A stretch of DNA of 11,787 nt, from IMG/VR virus record IMGVR_UViG_648276671_000012; one strand, given 5' to 3'. The stretch is from a virus (Duplodnaviria; Heunggongvirae; Uroviricota; Caudoviricetes). The position numbers were made by a program, and so were the translations under genes. The notes below the pieces were generated by a model. That model searched no databases, was not told the origin of the DNA, and saw only the letters and a list, made by a program, of their open reading frames with translations. Positions 1 through 11,787 of this stretch are shown here, in pieces (positions within the stretch are counted from its first letter, which is position 1; each line of letters begins with the position of its first letter).

Positions 1-1672
1 CACCTGCGGCCTGCGCCCGGCGGCCCGTTCGTCCGGTGTTATCAGGGAATGTACGGCTGATCAGTTTTGCGCGCCGGATGCTGTCACCCTTAAACAGGTA
101 AATACGTTTACCAAGGCCATCACGACGGCAACGACGCCAGAATTTATAGGCATTATCAGTGACCCCGTCTTCACCGCCGGAGTCCACCGCCATTGCCATC
201 AGTCGCATTTGTTGAGAAGGATCGGAGGCCAGCGGCCAGCTTTTATGAAAAACATCCGTCAGCAGGACATCCCAGTCTTCCGGATAGCTGGCCGGATCAA
301 TTCGCTGGCTCTCCCCGTCGCAGTCACTGCGCAATGACTGCGTGATGTTGTAACGATCAATAATCCAGCGTTCGCCACGACTGCCATAGCCCGTTACCTG
401 AACCACAAAACGGCGATGACGTCCCGCCTGCACATCCACTGTCGCCACAAGGAAATTAATGCCATCCGGCACACTGCGGGAAGGAACTGGCTCTGCCCGC
501 TGCTCAAGCAGTTCACTTTTTCGTTGCTCCATGCTGGCACGAGGAAGATAAGGCAATCCCCAGTCGGTGTTGATAACCGCCCTGAGTGTTTCTTCGCTTC
601 CTGTCGCTTCATACTCCTGTTCTGCAGTCAGTAATTTGTAAACCAGTTGCGCCCAGGTCTGATACGCAGCAGCTGGCCCTTCCATCCAGAAACTGGCGAT
701 ACGGGAGCGGCGCGGTTCACCGGAAACGTTGCCGTTACGATCAATGACCTGACCTTCACGCAACCAGACTCCTGCACTATTGAGCTCACGCTTTTTCTCC
801 GCAGTGATAATGCCGCTGCAGTGCGGGCAAAGTAGATACGCCGCCTCACTGGCTTTAAAGGGATCCGGTTCATTACGGTAGCCGGTCATGGCATCCATGG
901 CTGGCTGAAAATATTCACCGCAGTGCGGACATGACCAGTACCAGCGGCGGCGGTCACCACGATTGTAAAGGGAAAGAATACCAGTCGTCGGTGGCGCTTC
1001 ATGAGGCGACTTACGTCGCCATTTGCTATCGCAGATGTCACGTCCCGGCGAGCTCTCCACCAGAGTCATCCCGGCGGACATAAATGTGGTGGTACGTTTT
1101 GAGGCCAGGGAGAAACCATCACCCTCGCTGTCGATATTCTCCGGAAAACGGTCGTAATCGGTTAAGGCGACAAACCGGTAATCCGACGACGACATAATGT
1201 TGACCGAGGGCCAACCAATTTTAAGGAACGAGCCATCCCTGAACGTCTTCTCATGGACATTATTGTCGTTACGACGTGGACTCATTCTTTTCTTTACCGC
1301 CGCACTGCTTCTGAACGTTCTGTCGAGGCGCTTTTTAGAATGCTCGCGGGCCTTATCTTCGGTCATCTGCACAACGAGCATGTCCGAAGGATCGCAAACG
1401 ATGGTATAGACAATCCATCCATCGATCAGACCAATGGTCTTCCCTGTTCGCGCAGGACCAACAAAAATCACCGCATCGTATTCACGCGATGCCAGGCAGT
1501 TCATGGGCTCAATGATGTAGGGTGTCAGTTCAGGATCCCATGGCACCGAGTTACCAGCCCCCTTGGGAACACGCATGAATTTTTTAACAGCCTCCGAAAT
1601 CGGCATGCGACGTGGTGGGGAAAATCCTGCCGATATGTCCCTTCCCAAATTTCGGGCTGATGAAAAACCCAT
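1..1672 (-). CDS. phage terminase large subunit (lambda gpA-like), N-terminal ~557 codons; 3' end lies beyond window start
   Basis: Manual minus-strand translation from ATG 1672..1670 (GGAGG SD about 5 nt upstream) is open to position 2: MGFSSARNLGRD..., Walker A VIFVGPARTGKT, zinc-finger-like WYWSCPHCGEYFQ and LCPHCSGIIT. Absent from the ORF track because the ORF is incomplete in the window. Sits directly downstream of the small-subunit gene. Confidence 0.8.
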   Translation of the reverse strand, partial: MGFSSARNLGRDISAGFSPPRRMPISEAVKKFMRVPKGAGNSVPWDPELTPYIIEPMNCLASREYDAVIFVGPARTGKTIGLIDGWIVYTIVCDPSDMLVVQMTEDKAREHSKKRLDRTFRSSAAVKKRMSPRRNDNNVHEKTFRDGSFLKIGWPSVNIMSSSDYRFVALTDYDRFPENIDSEGDGFSLASKRTTTFMSAGMTLVESSPGRDICDSKWRRKSPHEAPPTTGILSLYNRGDRRRWYWSCPHCGEYFQPAMDAMTGYRNEPDPFKASEAAYLLCPHCSGIITAEKKRELNSAGVWLREGQVIDRNGNVSGEPRRSRIASFWMEGPAAAYQTWAQLVYKLLTAEQEYEATGSEETLRAVINTDWGLPYLPRASMEQRKSELLEQRAEPVPSRSVPDGINFLVATVDVQAGRHRRFVVQVTGYGSRGERWIIDRYNITQSLRSDCDGESQRIDPASYPEDWDVLLTDVFHKSWPLASDPSQQMRLMAMAVDSGGEDGVTDNAYKFWRRCRRDGLGKRIYLFKGDSIRRAKLISRTFPDNTGRTGRRAQAAG

Positions 1673-1680
1673 TATTCCTC

Positions 1681-2238
1681 CTAGAGACTCTCTCCTTCCT
1701 CATCAGGAATTAATTCAGCAGCACAAGCCTCGTAGGATTTTTCCTGAAGAGTGTATCGCAGGTCATCAATTGCCTGCTGTACAACGCCGACGGCCTGAGG
1801 AGTCAGGGCGCAATCGCGTTCAAGAACATCCGGAATTGTCTCCAGAACCTGGACGACAGCCTTTCTCATGGACGAATAGACGATGACTACTTCATCAACG
1901 GGGATGAGTTTTCGCTGCTCCTTTTCCAGCTTGATCCTTTCATTTTCAGACTGGTACCAGTCCTTTCTCTCTTTCGGCTCCATACGGGATGGATCATGAA
2001 CAGAGTCTGCTGCCTCATGCTTCACACTAAACAGGGCTGGCCCGACATGCTGCAGGGCGTAAACGGGGTTCCCCCTGACAGTCGCAGCCACAGGAGTGTT
2101 GGCCGCGAGAAGCCGTTTTTTTACTGTGTCCCGGTGAAGCCCAAAGGCCTCAGCGATTTTAAAAACACTCCAGTAATAAGCATCACCGATCCCGCTCACA
2201 TTTGACATAAGCAACTCCATCTGGCAGGTGAAAATCAT
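1681..2238 (-). CDS. phage terminase small subunit (lambda Nu1-like, NohA-like)
   Basis: 185-aa ORF with N-terminal HTH-like segment (SVFKIAEAFGLHRDTVKKRL) and acidic C-terminus (AAELIPDEEGESL), resembling lambda Nu1. Lies between a cos-like site and the large terminase gene. True start may be the internal ATG at 2208..2206, which has a GGAG SD; the first ATG at 2238 lacks an obvious SD. Confidence 0.7.
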   Translation of the reverse strand: MIFTCQMELLMSNVSGIGDAYYWSVFKIAEAFGLHRDTVKKRLLAANTPVAATVRGNPVYALQHVGPALFSVKHEAADSVHDPSRMEPKERKDWYQSENERIKLEKEQRKLIPVDEVVIVYSSMRKAVVQVLETIPDVLERDCALTPQAVGVVQQAIDDLRYTLQEKSYEACAAELIPDEEGESL

Positions 2239-2387
2239 GTTTATTTATATATTTCAATTAATTGTAAACTGGTCTAATGACAGGGAGAAAAAAATATTGT
2301 ACAGGTAAAAAGAGAAATAACTTTTAATTATCAATAAATTACCAAACATGCTGCCGCCGCCATGGAAATGCAAAAACTAGCCTTTTT

Positions 2388-2407
2388 CCGCGACGCTCCC
2401 GCCCCGT
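2388..2407 (-). other. putative cosN (cohesive end site), lambda-like variant
   Basis: Minus strand reads ACG GGGCGGGAGCGT CGCGG, against lambda ACG GGGCGGCGACCT CGCGG as recalled (16 of 20 identical, both flanks conserved). It is a GC-rich island in AT-rich DNA about 170-190 bp upstream of the Nu1-like start, where cosB is expected. Confidence 0.5.
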
Positions 2408-2765
2408 GGCAGGGGCCCCCACCGGGAGGACCCGACAGCCTGACAGCCGTGACGAGCATCTGATACAGCGCTTTACATAATGGCATAGGAATAATTCAGA
2501 AGGACATCACAGCATGCCCACACAAATTAGTGTGAGTGTCCTGTTTCTTCCTACGCACAGGACTGACGAGCATGAGGGGAAAATACGCGAACCATAAATG
2601 CCTCATCTTCAGCAATGCAGCCGAACAGGACGATATTGTAAATTCACCTAATTACGAGGACATTGCAGTAGTTGAATTGCAGCTCTGTATTAGCCTGACA
2701 GTGACAGAATGCGATATTGACTCTGTCACAGGTGGAATAGTTTGAATGATTAGCAGTTATGGTGC

Positions 2766-2972
2766 TCAGTCAACCACCAGGGAATAATCCTTCGAATTCT
2801 TATCGTGCTTCACCAACGCTGCCTCAATTGCCCTGAATGCTTCCAGAAACACCTGATGTTCTATACATGCAATTACAACATCCGGGTAACTCATAGAAAT
2901 GGTGCTATTAAGCATATTTTTTACACGAATCAGATCCAACGAGAGTTCATCAGCAGATTGTTCTTTATTCAT
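2766..2972 (-). CDS. hypothetical small acidic protein (68 aa), moron between cos and ydfO-like gene
   Basis: ORF with GGAG SD 9 nt upstream of ATG (2972..2970). No recognisable motif. Occupies the position where I believe K-12 Qin has a small ORF between nohA and ydfO, but the sequence is not recognised. Confidence 0.4.
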
Positions 2973-3272
2973 TTTGTCGCTCCATGCGTTTGCTCGTCAT
3001 CTAGCGGTTAAAATATTACTTCAAATCTTTCTGCATAAAAGAGGAAAAGTATGAAAGTTTGAGTACATCGACCTTACATACATCTGTCGGTTGCATATCC
3101 CTCCTGGATGCCAGCAAGGCTCAACTTTGTTACGCAACCAACACTATTTATTGAAAACAGGCTTAATATTTGACATAAATCATCAACAAAACACAAAGAG
3201 GTCAGACCAGATTGAAACAATAAACACGATAATGCAAACTACGCGTCATCGTATCACATGGAAGGTTTACCA

Positions 3273-3683
3273 ATGGCTCAGGCTGCCATTTTTAAAGAAA
3301 TATTCGATCAAGTGCGTAAAGATTTAAACTGTGAATTATTTTATTCTGAGCTAAAACGTCACAATGTCTCACTTTATATTTACTATTTAGCCACAGATAA
3401 TATTCACATTGTGTTAGAAAACGACAACATAGTGTTAGTAAAAGGACTCAAAAAGGTTGTAAATGTTAAATTCTCCAGAAACAAACATCTTATAGAGACC
3501 TCCTATAATAAGTTGAAATCAAAAGAAATCACATTTCAACAATACAGGGAAAATCTTGCTAAAGCAGGAGTTTTCCGATGGGTTACAAATATCCATGAAC
3601 ACCAAAGATATTACTATACCTTTGATAACTCATTACTATTTACTGAAAGCATCCAGAAAACTACACAAATCTTACCACGCTAA
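3273..3683 (+). CDS. ydfO: DUF1398-family protein (YdfO-like), 136 aa
   Basis: ORF on the strand opposite the late operon; start chosen at ATG 3273 (GGAAGG SD 6 nt upstream) rather than the track ATG at 3258. Assignment rests mainly on synteny with K-12 Qin (nohA-ydfO-gnsB-ynfN-cspI) and matching length, not on recognised sequence. Confidence 0.55.
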
Positions 3684-3785
3684 ACCATAACGTCCGGCTT
3701 CTCTCACTCCTGAGCCGGACTGCATTGGTTTAATAAAAACCATCAACAATTGTGATTTAGATATTCGGAACCATTCAAATATAAC

Positions 3786-3809
3786 AAAACCCCGTAAAAA
3801 CGAGGTTTA
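3786..3809 (-). terminator. putative intrinsic terminator downstream of gns-like gene
   Basis: Minus-strand RNA CCUCGU-UUUU-ACGGGG hairpin (one G.U pair) followed by UUUUGUU. Confidence 0.4.
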
Positions 3810-3834
3810 TGGATAAATTTTATTATTGAATACA

Positions 3835-4007
3835 TCAGATTAAATTAATCTTGACATCATAGCTTTCAAGACCCGTCATTTTTTCCCGTGCGGTAAACTG
3901 AATACTGGTAACTTCTTTCCCGGTCTTTTTCTTAAGTTCAATAATTTTTTTGTTATATATTCAGAAATATCTGCTTCTGCTTTTGTTTTTAAGTCTTCAA
4001 TATTCAT
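3835..4007 (-). pseudogene. gnsB/gnsA-like gene disrupted by -1 frameshift in a homopolymer (A7 on coding strand, T7 on plus strand 3945..3951)
   Basis: Minus-strand translation from ATG 4007 gives MNIEDLKTKAEADISEYITKK and then goes out of frame to a stop at 3878..3876. The -1 frame continues IIELKKKTGKEVTSIQFTAREKMTGLESYDVKINLI to TGA at 3837..3835. Both halves resemble GnsA/GnsB (57 aa) as recalled; one extra A would restore a 57-aa ORF. Confidence 0.6.
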
Positions 4008-4179
4008 CATTTCCTCTTTTAGTCTGTTATGACTTTCCAGTTACACTGGTAAGTCGATTATATGGTGCAAACGTGTAAAAGATAAGATGAAACATCGCAA
4101 TAATCAACATACGATAGTCTAAATTTTACACAAACAGACAAAGAGAATTTTCCTGAATTATCAATGCAATAGCATCAAA

Positions 4180-4335
4180 TCAACTCAAGAGCCTTATTGC
4201 TGCTTCCAGAATTTCTTCTGAAGTAACATGCCGATCCGCGGCTACATAAATGACTTTATGATCTCCGGTCAGAGATGGAAACCCTGCGGCCATTACAGTA
4301 AGGTGTGTTTTTTCGCCATTTGGATATTCACGCAT
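4180..4335 (-). CDS. small hypothetical protein, 51 aa from internal ATG (possibly YnfN-like by position)
   Basis: Track ORF 4180..4371 is 63 aa; the ATG at 4335..4333 gives 51 aa (MREYPNGEKTHLTV...). Lies between the gns-like gene and cspI as ynfN does in K-12 Qin. Sequence not independently recognised. Confidence 0.45.
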   Translation of the reverse strand: MREYPNGEKTHLTVMAAGFPSLTGDHKVIYVAADRHVTSEEILEAAIRLLS

Positions 4336-4453
4336 GATGGTGTTAACTCCAGTCATCGCTGGCACTACCACTGCTGGTTCAGAGTTAAAAAAACTATGAT
4401 TTTTTTCATGATGTTACCGTAGTATGTGAGTATCCATCGAATAGACACCAAGC

Positions 4454-4474
4454 AAAAAAGCTCCCGAAGGAGCC
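4454..4474 (-). terminator. putative intrinsic terminator between cspI and the 51-aa ORF
   Basis: Minus-strand GCUCC-UUCG-GGAGC stem with tetraloop followed by U6; about 210 nt downstream of the cspI stop. Confidence 0.4.
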
Positions 4475-4680
4475 TTCATTTTCACTTTTTTAAATCCAAC
4501 GACAGACGGCTGGCATTTAAGTATTGTGAAATATTATCAAATGTAATCATCATTGATTTACAAAAGATACATTTTGCCCCGAAAGGATTCATGTCAGAAA
4601 CATCAAAAGATGATGTTCTATACTGGGAACCATGACAACACGGGCATCTAAAGTGAATATGGTTTGTAATATTGTCTACC

Positions 4681-4893
4681 TCAAAGCGCCACTACATGAA
4701 CAGCGGCAGGACCTTTAGGTCCGTTCTCAATACCAAATTCAACTTCCTGATTCTCAGTTAATGTTTTGAAATCGTTGCTCTGAATTGCTGAGAAATGGAC
4801 AAACACATCTTTGCTGCCATCTTTCGGCGTGATGAAACCAAAACCTTTTTCAGGGTTAAACCATTTCACTAAACCAGTCATTTTGTTAGACAT
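4681..4893 (-). CDS. cspI: cold-shock protein, CspA family (CspI-like), 70 aa
   Basis: [34 protein letters not shown]... with RNP1-like KGFGFI and RNP2-like VFVHF motifs. cspA-type SD (AAGG about 9 nt upstream of ATG 4893..4891) and a roughly 360-bp upstream intergenic region consistent with a long csp 5' UTR. Confidence 0.9.
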
Positions 4894-5255
4894 AATTATT
4901 ACCTTTTGAAGAAATTAGCCCTTGGGCAGAATGGTCCGAAAAAAAATATCAGAGAGAAAAACCAACAAGGAAATCTCAAGAGGTACAAATAATAAAATTA
5001 TAACAATGACTGCTTCAGATAAATTTGTAACAAACCAGAACACCATTAACGCATGATTAACCACCCATAGCAAGGATTACTTTTGTAAAGAAAAACACAG
5101 CAATGAAAGAATAGCTTTATTTATTAATAAAACGTGTCATTCTGATTAAGACCTTTTATCTTACCCTTAAGATTTCAGGAATTTTGACTCATGGAAGAGT
5201 CCTTTTTATTTAAATTTTACATTCAGCGATGTAAATGTTCCGATTTAATATTACC

Positions 5256-6279
<1,024 letters not shown>

Positions 6280-6283
<4 letters not shown>

Positions 6284-6591
6284 ATATATTTATGATGAGG
6301 ACGCTCGTGCTTATTGGCAGGATTTTCAATCTTAAAGGAGTACTGATGCTGCAGATAAGACTCAACTTTTTCTGACAATTTTTCTGCTACTTCCAGGAAG
6401 ACTTGCCGGACGCTCCTTCTGGCTGCTGCCTCATAAAACTCCAGCGCAGCTCCTTCAACACGGTCCATGGCGACATCCAGGCCAAAAATTTCACCGTCAA
6501 AGCGTTCTTTGTCCTGTAAGGCTACAGTTACCGTAACTTTATTCTCAAAATTACGGACTCCTTTCACAACCAGTTCATAGTCTTGAGTCAT
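6280..6591 (-). CDS. ydfR: DUF1327-family protein (YdfR-like), 103 aa, inserted between holin and endolysin
   Basis: ORF tightly packed in the lysis cassette: stop overlaps the endolysin start and its start is 5 nt after the holin stop. Assignment by synteny and length. Confidence 0.65.
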
Positions 6592-6595
6592 TGGA

Positions 6596-6811
6596 TTACT
6601 CTCCTCTCGCAGCCTTACGCCTGTCTTCTTTAATCTTGAAATAAAGATTTGTCAGATACGTCAGCAGGCCAAAAACCAGGCTACCCAGCACACCGATTGC
6701 AGCCCACTGTGACGGAGTTACTTTATCGAGTAACTGCAATGCCCAGAAACCAGCATTACCCGCCGATGTGCCATAGGCAACACCTGTTGTTAACTTATCC
6801 ATTGATTTCAT
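6596..6811 (-). CDS. essQ: phage 21 S-type pinholin with dual-start motif (M-K-S-M), 71 aa
   Basis: [71 protein letters not shown] closely resembles phage 21 S68/S71 as recalled. Two TMDs; GAGG SD 4-5 nt upstream of ATG 6811..6809. The track's 96-aa version (to 6886) is probably an artefactual N-terminal extension. Confidence 0.85.
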
Positions 6812-7030
6812 ATCCTCACCCCGATGTACACGGATGGTGCAATATGTTTGAAAAGATCGGAGTCTACGGGGTAGTTTTGACAGCACACGTTGTTCTCAAC
6901 GGCGCTAAAAAAACATACACATTAAAAATGTGGGTAATTATTTTGAAAGAAAGTCATATATAAAATAATAATACGAGAAATGTTTTCATATTTAGTGTAC
7001 TGTATACGGCCATTTATACAGGAAAAGCCT

Positions 7031-7201
7031 ATGTCAGAACGTAAAGACTCAAAATCACGCCGTAATTATCTCGTTAAATGTTCCTGCCCAAACTGCACCC
7101 AAGAGTCAGAACACAGTTTTTCAAGAGTACAAAAAGGTGCCCTTTTGATCTGCCCTCATTGCAACAAAGTATTCCAGACAAATCTTAAAGCTGTAGCCTG
7201 A
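7031..7201 (+). CDS. small zinc-ribbon protein, 56 aa (two CxxC pairs), strand opposite to late operon
   Basis: Internal ATG at 7031 with AGGA SD; CSCPNC...CPHC motif. Possible -35/-10 (TTGAAA, 17 bp, TAATAA) near 6943..6971. May correspond to the small protein YnfU of K-12 Qin, but this is recalled, not verified. Confidence 0.5.
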   Translation: MSERKDSKSRRNYLVKCSCPNCTQESEHSFSRVQKGALLICPHCNKVFQTNLKAVA

Positions 7202-7261
7202 TTGATTTTATTAGTAACAAGTATTTTTTATATTTTAATAATATATTTAAAGCAGATAATA

Positions 7262-8078: not shown

Positions 8079-8284
8079 CTGTCCCCTAAAATGACAGGAA
8101 TTGCCAAAAACTTTGACTACAAAAGCAGCAAAGGTCTTATATTCCCATCCGATGGCGTATCGATGCCCAGCTTCACGTTTCAGCTCTCAATCTTCGAGAT
8201 GCAGAAGAAATTACCACAGGATTACGCGTGGAATTTTGCCGGATAAATGGTTCGCGTGGACCTTCAACTGCCAATGTTTATCCC
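8079..8284 (+). pseudogene. cspF/cspH-like cold-shock gene remnant: start codon changed to CTG, -1 frameshift near 8156, altered C-terminus
   Basis: Frame A from 8079: [26 protein letters not shown] (recalled CspF: [26 protein letters not shown]). The match then continues in another frame: [50 protein letters not shown] is intact at 8068..8073. Product reconstructed by hand across two frames. Confidence 0.6.
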
Positions 8285-8324
8285 GGGATGAGATTCAATA
8301 TCTCTATTGCCCCATTTAAAGCAC

Positions 8325-11298: not shown

Positions 11299-11787
11299 AG
11301 ATTGGGCCTCAGATTAATGTTAAGCGTCTTGCAGGACGCGTAATGTTAACTGGGGCTTTTCTCTATCTGCCGTTGGTGGCATGCCCGAGGCAGATAGCCT
11401 CAAGCACCCGCTGCAATTCTACTTAACTCTTCTTTTCCCGCAAACCGTTTTTATCCAGCACAGCAAATAGCCGCATTAAGCCAATGTTGTTCATTGTGTT
11501 TACCGCCAGTATTCAATACAAATGACCGCCATGAATACCCCTACAAAAAGCGCACTTATATGTCCAAATATTAATGTCAAGACATCAACTTCCTCCATCT
11601 CCTCCGCTGTTGCGATGATAGGTATACATGATGCAAACAACCAGATTGCAACAAATAAAAACTGCAAATGTCTTTTTCATTATTCCCCCGACAATCAATG
11701 AGTAATAACATTTAAACATAGATTGACATAATCAGACATAAAAATAATCTAGGCTGCACATTTTGCTTACATCGTGTTATAGGGAAG

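Follow-up and report, generated by a model that had tools for sequence, protein, structure and literature searches.

Overexpression of GnsA/GnsB in Escherichia coli K-12 leads to more unsaturated fatty acids. It also acts as a suppressor of fabA6(Ts) and of the cold sensitivity of secG-null strains (Sugai et al. 2001, as cited in PMC10607373 and bioRxiv 10.1101/2024.03.27.586906). Low-temperature rescue of relA fadR mutants by overexpressed GnsB has been described as well (bioRxiv 10.1101/2024.03.27.586906), as has an increase in persister counts (bioRxiv 10.1101/310961). The 'toxin' label of the family (Pfam PF08178) traces to a reported ymcE-gnsA toxin-antitoxin pair (listed in PMC8484670). 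Our search of the literature on gnsB returned overexpression and transcriptome studies only, and no account of the A7 frameshift described here was found in it.

The gns-like gene considered here lies in a stretch of 11,787 nucleotides, which was analysed as a whole and is referred to as the window. On the sense strand it carries a run of seven A residues (A7) where most relatives have eight (A8). We think it probable that this A7 is a recurrent null allele, generated by replication slippage, in a Qin-like prophage that is decaying. The alternatives are an assembly artefact, a selected on/off switch and useful recoding, and each is weighed below with the evidence that bears on it.

The prophage and its gnsB locus

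The window is a Qin-like lambdoid prophage of E. coli, and hundreds of complete E. coli genomes have annotated prophages that are collinear with it at ~99% identity. In gene order, the terminase large subunit, DUF1441, DUF1398 (ydfO-like), gnsB, ynfN, ynfR, ymcF and cspI are followed by rzpQ, rrrQ, ydfR, essD, ynfU, cspB, cspF, ydfT, ydfU, rem and hokD. The gene is placed as a gnsB-type gene would be, downstream of cspI-ymcF-ynfR-ynfN in a Qin-like lambdoid prophage, and the annotated relatives are collinear with it at 99% identity. The closest complete E. coli genome matches the window at 99.3% over 11.4 kb and none is identical; over a 451-nt region the closest complete genome reaches 99.8%, with A8.

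Several differences from the relatives were seen elsewhere in the prophage. An 8-bp unit, GACAGCCT, differs in copy number at window position 2433, and a 7-bp indel is found at 2620. In the relatives L002, L008, L010, L012 and L016, 21 bp at the 3' end of the DUF1398 gene are duplicated (aligned to window 3639), and the DUF1398 product has 143 aa, against 136 aa without the duplication. The last 360 bases of the window (11428-11787) depart from the common prophage backbone: the alignment of most relatives ends at 11428, and only GPEC1446 and 14EC007 keep aligning beyond it, at ~86% identity. A further match, of 6.9 kb and 99.2% identical to window 384-7248, was found in a record labelled 'MAG: Veillonella parvula' (JAGZPX010000007.1). 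In this GTDB species representative, the stretch of E. coli prophage almost certainly got in as a contaminant during binning.

The identity of the gene was established by comparison with intact relatives. When 211 bases around gnsB were aligned with three complete genomes, all sequences were identical but for the length of the run, which was A8 in two of them. These two genomes annotate gnsB as a gene of 174 nt encoding WP_001019139.1, a 'GnsA/GnsB family addiction module toxin'. Adding one A to the run in the window gives exactly this 57-aa GnsB protein. Against Pfam PF08178 (GnsAB_toxin), the restored protein scores 119.6 bits (E 5e-35; the curated cut-off is 27 bits) and spans the whole model, positions 1-54 of 54. 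It also matches the solved GnsA structures 4XO1 and 4XO2, the latter at E 2.7e-20. Since the window differs by one base from an otherwise identical known gene, the resemblance is not a matter of chance. A sequence-only reading of this DNA had proposed a gns-like gene at 3835-4007 with its two halves in different frames, and both the 211-base alignment and the PF08178 match bear this out. It had also located the fault in seven T on the plus strand (3945..3951), of which eight would restore the reading frame; the exact return of WP_001019139.1 from the A8 form agrees with that prediction.

The coordinates of the locus are collected in Table 1. On the minus strand, frame 0 reads M(M)NIEDLKTKAEADISEYITKK followed by LLNLRKRPGKKLPVFSLPHGKK and a stop, for a product of 43 aa. 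The -1 frame ends in KKIIELKKKTGKEVTSIQFTAREKMTGLESYDVKINLI and the TGA of the intact gene. The two frames join at the run of seven A, where frame 0 reads AC[A AAA AAA] TTA and so contains an A_AAA_AAA heptamer. The 43-aa product of the A7 allele covers PF08178 model positions 1-32 only. An uninterrupted ORF of ~57 codons with the conserved C-terminal FTAREKMTGLESYDVKI is absent from the window, the ORF there being 43 codons long and the conserved segment lying in the -1 frame. The gnsB of the window is therefore a pseudogene of the GnsA/GnsB family and not a functional member of it.

Table 1. Features of the gnsB locus and the 8-base homopolymers of the region (window coordinates; last two columns give run-length counts)
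Feature	Position	Strand	Description	IMG/VR loci with non-8 run	Complete genomes
gnsB pseudogene	3835..4007	-	173 nt instead of 174; ATG 4007-4005 to original stop TGA 3837-3835		
Second in-frame ATG, upstream	4010-4008	-	Direct reading		
A7 homopolymer of gnsB, sense strand (plus-strand T7)	3945..3951	-	Site of the 1-bp deletion; ancestral state A8	10/118	8/7/9 = 1427/41/5
Codons 1-22 (MNIEDLKTKAEADISEYITKK)	3942..4007	-	Sole part of GnsB still translated in frame		
Out-of-frame tail, 21 codons (LLNLRKRPGKKLPVFSLPHGKK)	3876..3941	-	Premature stop TGA 3878-3876		
GnsB codons 23-57 (IIELKKKTGKEVTSIQFTAREKMTGLESYDVKINLI, then stop)	3835..3944	-	Shifted to the -1 frame; sequence as in the intact allele		
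Shine-Dalgarno-like GAGG	4013..4016	-	5 nt ahead of ATG 4007; direct reading		
Terminator-like hairpin, then T-rich tail	3787..3808	-	~27 nt past the gnsB stop		
ynfN, frameshifted, adjoins gnsB	4180..4409	-	T8-to-T7 contraction		
ynfN run (plus-strand A7)	4387-4393			17/113	Only the 7 allele queried, not comparable
Intergenic A8, upstream of cspI	4939-4946			24/107	A8 1329, A7 127
rzpQ T8	5667-5674	-		1/90	T8 411, T7 3

This anatomy suggests how the gene was broken. One A:T pair would have been lost from the A8 run between codons 20 and 23, most likely by strand slippage during replication. Translation would then leave the GnsB frame after Lys22, gain 21 unrelated residues and stop, and the resulting loss of the conserved C-terminal 35 residues would be expected to leave a null allele or a strong hypomorph. 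Its recurrence within the species would stem from the 8-base homopolymer, which as such is an indel hot spot. The A7 allele may persist, close to neutral, because gnsB is a dispensable gene of a prophage in decay.

Run-length alleles in public genomes

The frequency of the A7 allele was assessed in several collections. Exact matching of an 81-nt query centred on the run, with identical flanks, gave 1427 A8, 41 A7 and 5 A9 alleles in complete E. coli genomes (A7 in 41 of 2139 complete-genome records), counts that refer to genomes and not to independent events. Several of the A7 carriers form clonal sets (CX08/CX12, three SW0716 isolates and MLI108K1/K2), and systematic platform errors at the run might raise the A7 count. 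In IMG/VR prophage contigs, a search that allowed the run to differ in length gave 118 loci, none of them containing the window, with A8 in 108, A7 in 8 and A9 in 2. The three matches at the locus among GTDB species representatives are all A8. Judged from these sequences, A8 is the ancestral and dominant state of the gnsB run.

The truncated products were also looked up exactly in contigs drawn from NCBI, ENA, JGI, UniRef and Logan. The form MNIEDLK...GKK (D5 haplotype) occurs on 224 contigs and MNIENLK...GKK (N5 haplotype) on at least 1000, making >1,200 contigs with the 43-aa forms, and a 41-aa form occurs on 315. All ten MNIEDLK...GKK loci that were fetched have A7 in their DNA. The ten comprise metagenome scaffolds, draft genomes, SPAdes-named contigs and a Logan SRA-run assembly, and their naming and source suggest that they are mostly short-read assemblies. 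PGAP marks the A7 allele as 'frameshifted' in GPEC1446, ER1709, RM10042 and Ecol_AZ155, and in JNEC-KY179 and CFIAFB20190167 it calls the allele a 41-aa CDS (WP_349812768.1) with the start codon ATA. Examples of this divided annotation are locus L003 (1636-1761) and locus L006 (4350-4475). The A7 allele is thus already in public databases, annotated as a pseudogene, and is ordinary. RefSeq labelling is inconsistent among identical A7 alleles, which appear either as a 'frameshifted' pseudogene or as an ATA-start 41-aa CDS, a point of consequence for annotation.

Local haplotypes were compared over 1651 nt (DUF1398 to cspI) aligned from 21 loci, a sample biased by the many loci fetched for carrying A7, so that it shows recurrence and no frequency. 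At least four pairs of A7 and A8 alleles share a local background, 0-2 SNPs apart. The window and L013 differ by 0 and 1 SNPs, respectively, from the A8 locus L001 (FHI_NMBU_03), L010 differs by 0 SNPs from L002, L006 and L005 differ by 1 and 2 SNPs from L004, and ER1709 differs by 0 SNPs from K-12 MG1655. The presence of both alleles on four shared backgrounds points to several independent origins of the deletion, some of which may be miscalls. Secondary decay past the frameshift was uninformative as a dating tool, there being one other variable gnsB site among the compared loci.

The same alignment bears on the possibility that the source genome truly has A8 and that one base was lost by homopolymer under-calling of the long-read, 454 or Ion Torrent type. 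Contraction of an 8-mer by one base is a classic error class. Over the 1651 nt the window differs from L001 by 0 substitutions and solely by two homopolymer contractions, a pattern that long-read consensus errors also yield. Elsewhere, the 1651-nt haplotype of the window carries A8 in L001, and in L013 it comes with A7 and one SNP. Its exact 451-nt haplotype with A7 occurs in no complete genome, and the complete genomes of identical haplotype all have A8. In IMG/VR, moreover, the gnsB and ynfN runs are both 9 in L101 and both 7 in L027, L121 and L137, which hints at assemblies that miscount.

The other homopolymers of the region served as internal controls (Table 1). Relatives have four 8-base homopolymers in this region, two of which read 7 in the window, in gnsB and ynfN. 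The ynfN contraction is a validated K-12 allele, and the 8-mers at 4939-4946 and 5667-5674 are intact; long runs in the window may thus not be systematically shortened. In the 118 IMG/VR loci, the longer a run, the more its length varies: 7-mers vary in ~1-2%, three of the four 8-mers vary in 8-22%, and 6-mers are invariant except at 7224-7229, where four 5-base alleles were seen among 61 loci. The gnsB run belongs among the ordinary slippage-prone 8-mers. The intergenic A8 at 4939-4946, in the leader or promoter region of cspI, is the most length-polymorphic site of the region (7 in 16, 8 in 83 and 9 in 8 of the IMG/VR loci).

Set against these controls, the gnsB run varies ~3 times less than the intergenic A8 (41/1427 vs 127/1329, Fisher p = 3e-12), and its contraction is ~4 times commoner than that of the rzpQ run (41 in 1468 vs 3 in 414, Fisher p = 0.0098). 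Since sequencing error is blind to selection, the rzpQ figure (~0.7%) gives a rough upper bound on technical 8-to-7 miscalls, and most of the ~2.8% gnsB A7 alleles should be real, with the proviso that sequence context may alter the error rate. The near-invariant T8 of rzpQ also suggests that purifying selection continues to act on this Rz-like lysis-cassette gene, even in a prophage called cryptic.

Two neighbouring genes are frameshifted in the window as well. The ynfN T7 allele is that of K-12 MG1655, where PGAP marks it 'frameshifted', and it has exact matches in 417 of 1479 complete-genome records, a figure swollen by laboratory K-12 derivatives. Alleles with T9 are present in IMG/VR. The ynfN contraction was considered as a sign of low-quality assembly and was ruled out as such, being present in K-12 MG1655 and in 417 complete genomes. 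In cspF (about 8091-8300), a 1-bp deletion at ~8155 lies outside any homopolymer (GATGG[T]CG). It is common to EC43 and CFIAFB20190167, in both of which PGAP calls a pseudogene, and this sharing indicates that the cspF pseudogene was inherited. With ynfN and cspF frameshifted alongside gnsB, the Qin-like prophage of the window is, to judge by its genes, decaying.

Under-calling in the window has thus to be set against a ynfN contraction that is a real allele, against the recurrence of the gnsB A7 in many independent short-read-style assemblies and against its spread beyond any one assembly, with 41 complete genomes and products on contigs of varied origin. An artefact is not required as an explanation for the A7 of the window, and we regard it as unlikely, with a small but real chance of being correct. 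The sequence-only reading had tied an assembly error to related genomes that consistently show T8, and this is not what was found: ~3% of them carry T7.

Possible switching and recoding at the run

Recurrent slippage would also be seen if the A-run were a selected on/off switch, that is, a contingency locus for a toxin-like prophage gene. Several observations are in keeping with this. Length alleles of 7, 8 and 9 coexist in the species, both in complete genomes and in IMG/VR, the A7 allele arose repeatedly, the family is annotated as a toxin (PF08178; the ymcE-gnsA pair noted above), and ynfN next door has a polymorphic 8-mer of its own. However, variation above that of unselected tracts was not seen at gnsB: the non-coding A8 at 4939-4946 is the more variable of the two, and a difference of this size indicates mild purifying selection on the gnsB run. 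The comparison with internal controls gave no sign of selection for switching at this run. Off alleles amount to ~3% and A9 to ~0.3%, and 8 bases are short for a phase-variation tract. In mismatch-repair-proficient E. coli, 8-base A/T runs mutate far more slowly than known phase-variation tracts. A switch at this locus is accordingly most improbable. Of the three options left by the sequence-only reading, true pseudogenisation is upheld by the 41 complete genomes, the >1,200 contigs and at least four haplotypes, and a slippage-prone on/off site is disfavoured by a run that varies less than the neighbouring non-coding 8-mer.

The states of gnsB and ynfN were examined for coupling. In IMG/VR the association was not significant (odds ratio 4.1, p = 0.09), and among 15 other fetched A7 loci ynfN T7 was found in 1. 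A toxin/antitoxin-like pair of gnsB and ynfN is unsupported by this test, and K-12 has a broken ynfN together with an intact gnsB. Co-occurrence of 9s or of 7s in the two genes in IMG/VR is slightly above what independence would give, and it may reflect miscounting assemblies, mutator lineages or K-12 derivatives.

A further possibility is that the A7 allele is still usefully expressed, with wild-type GnsB made at a reduced and tuned level through -1 ribosomal frameshifting at A_AAA_AAA or through an A added by RNA polymerase. The A7 allele does have a perfect slippery heptamer of the type X_XXY_YYZ in the zero frame. Neither this heptamer nor the contraction in ynfN had been remarked on in the sequence-only reading. 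A -1 slip within AC[A AAA AAA] TTA would yield ...ITKK IIELKKK..., the same residues as in the A8 product. Past the run the reading frame is undamaged, which is uninformative because gnsB hardly varies in any allele. In E. coli, A_AA.A_AA.A gives >0.10% frameshifting without stimulators against a background of 0.055%, and AAAAAAA is avoided in all frames, possibly through transcriptional slippage or a high indel rate (Sharma et al., PMC4066793). Transcriptional slippage is known to occur at runs of A, and genes that carry such a run together with a frameshift may stay partly functional, productive cases being mostly of 9 A; selection against slippage-prone runs typically starts at 9 bases (Baranov et al., PMC1088944).

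The surroundings of the heptamer offer little to raise such a yield. In the 80 nt downstream we found no frameshift stimulator, the native sequence folding at -9.9 kcal/mol and the shuffles on average at -12.5 (z = +1.0), with 169 of 200 shuffles folding at least as well, and no SD-like motif was found in the 20 nt upstream of the run. Nor is the two-frame arrangement conserved among homologues, ~97% of which have the uninterrupted A8 ORF (A8 in 1427 and A7 in 41 complete genomes; A8 in 108 of the 118 IMG/VR loci). A yield of well under 1% is to be expected, and useful recoding is very unlikely. Under our preferred reading of A7 as a slippage null allele, traces of full-length GnsB would probably still arise, through slippage of the ribosome into -1 at A_AAA_AAA or through slippage of RNA polymerase, incidentally and not as a programmed event. 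It is also highly doubtful that A7 acts as a recurring 'dimmer', an allele that would hold the toxin-like, membrane-lipid-modulating GnsB at ~0.1-1% of normal and, jointly with the equally polymorphic ynfN 8-mer, would let homopolymer length set the dosage of two genes as one module.

Comparison with known alleles and recoding sites

The gnsB case provides a worked example of 8-base A/T runs in small E. coli prophage genes as recurrent indel hot spots. Two 8-mers serve as its internal controls, a more variable non-coding one and a less variable one in a lysis gene. In such genes, comparison alone cannot make a single homopolymer difference an assembly error. If low-level recoding were true, the locus would be a small natural example of leaky frameshift alleles in a toxin-like gene.

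The nearest counterpart is gnsB (ydfY) of the Qin cryptic prophage of K-12. The protein restored from the window is WP_001019139.1, and the DNA differs from the common intact allele by one base, with which the ORF is broken (A7) and only residues 1-22 stay in frame. The prophages share the order DUF1398 - gnsB - ynfN - ynfR - ymcF - cspI - rzpQ - rrrQ, continued by ydfR - essD - cspB - cspF - ydfT - ydfU - rem - hokD. The prophage of the window is fuller than K-12 Qin, with the terminase large subunit and the DUF1441 gene in place of nohA and ynfO. The ynfN of MG1655 shows the same kind of 8-to-7 contraction in a neighbouring small gene, fixed in that reference genome, as an allele that is far commoner (417/1479) than the gnsB A7 (41 of about 1470).

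Frameshifted gnsB alleles in RefSeq/GenBank (GPEC1446 ACYX32_RS04910, ER1709 DQ225_RS18255 and RM10042 I3W_RS10415) share with the window both the codon position of A7 and the 43-aa product, and truncated gnsB proteins have been deposited as EMX88369.1, EGB38208.1 and WP_349812768.1. The deposited A7 alleles differ from that of the window in their local haplotype. With the programmed -1 sites A_AAA_AAA and A_AAA_AAG of IS elements and dnaX, the A7 allele shares an in-frame heptamer and a meaningful protein in the -1 frame. Unlike those sites, it has neither a stimulatory structure nor an SD-like motif, and its two-frame arrangement is unconserved, with A8 as the ancestral state.
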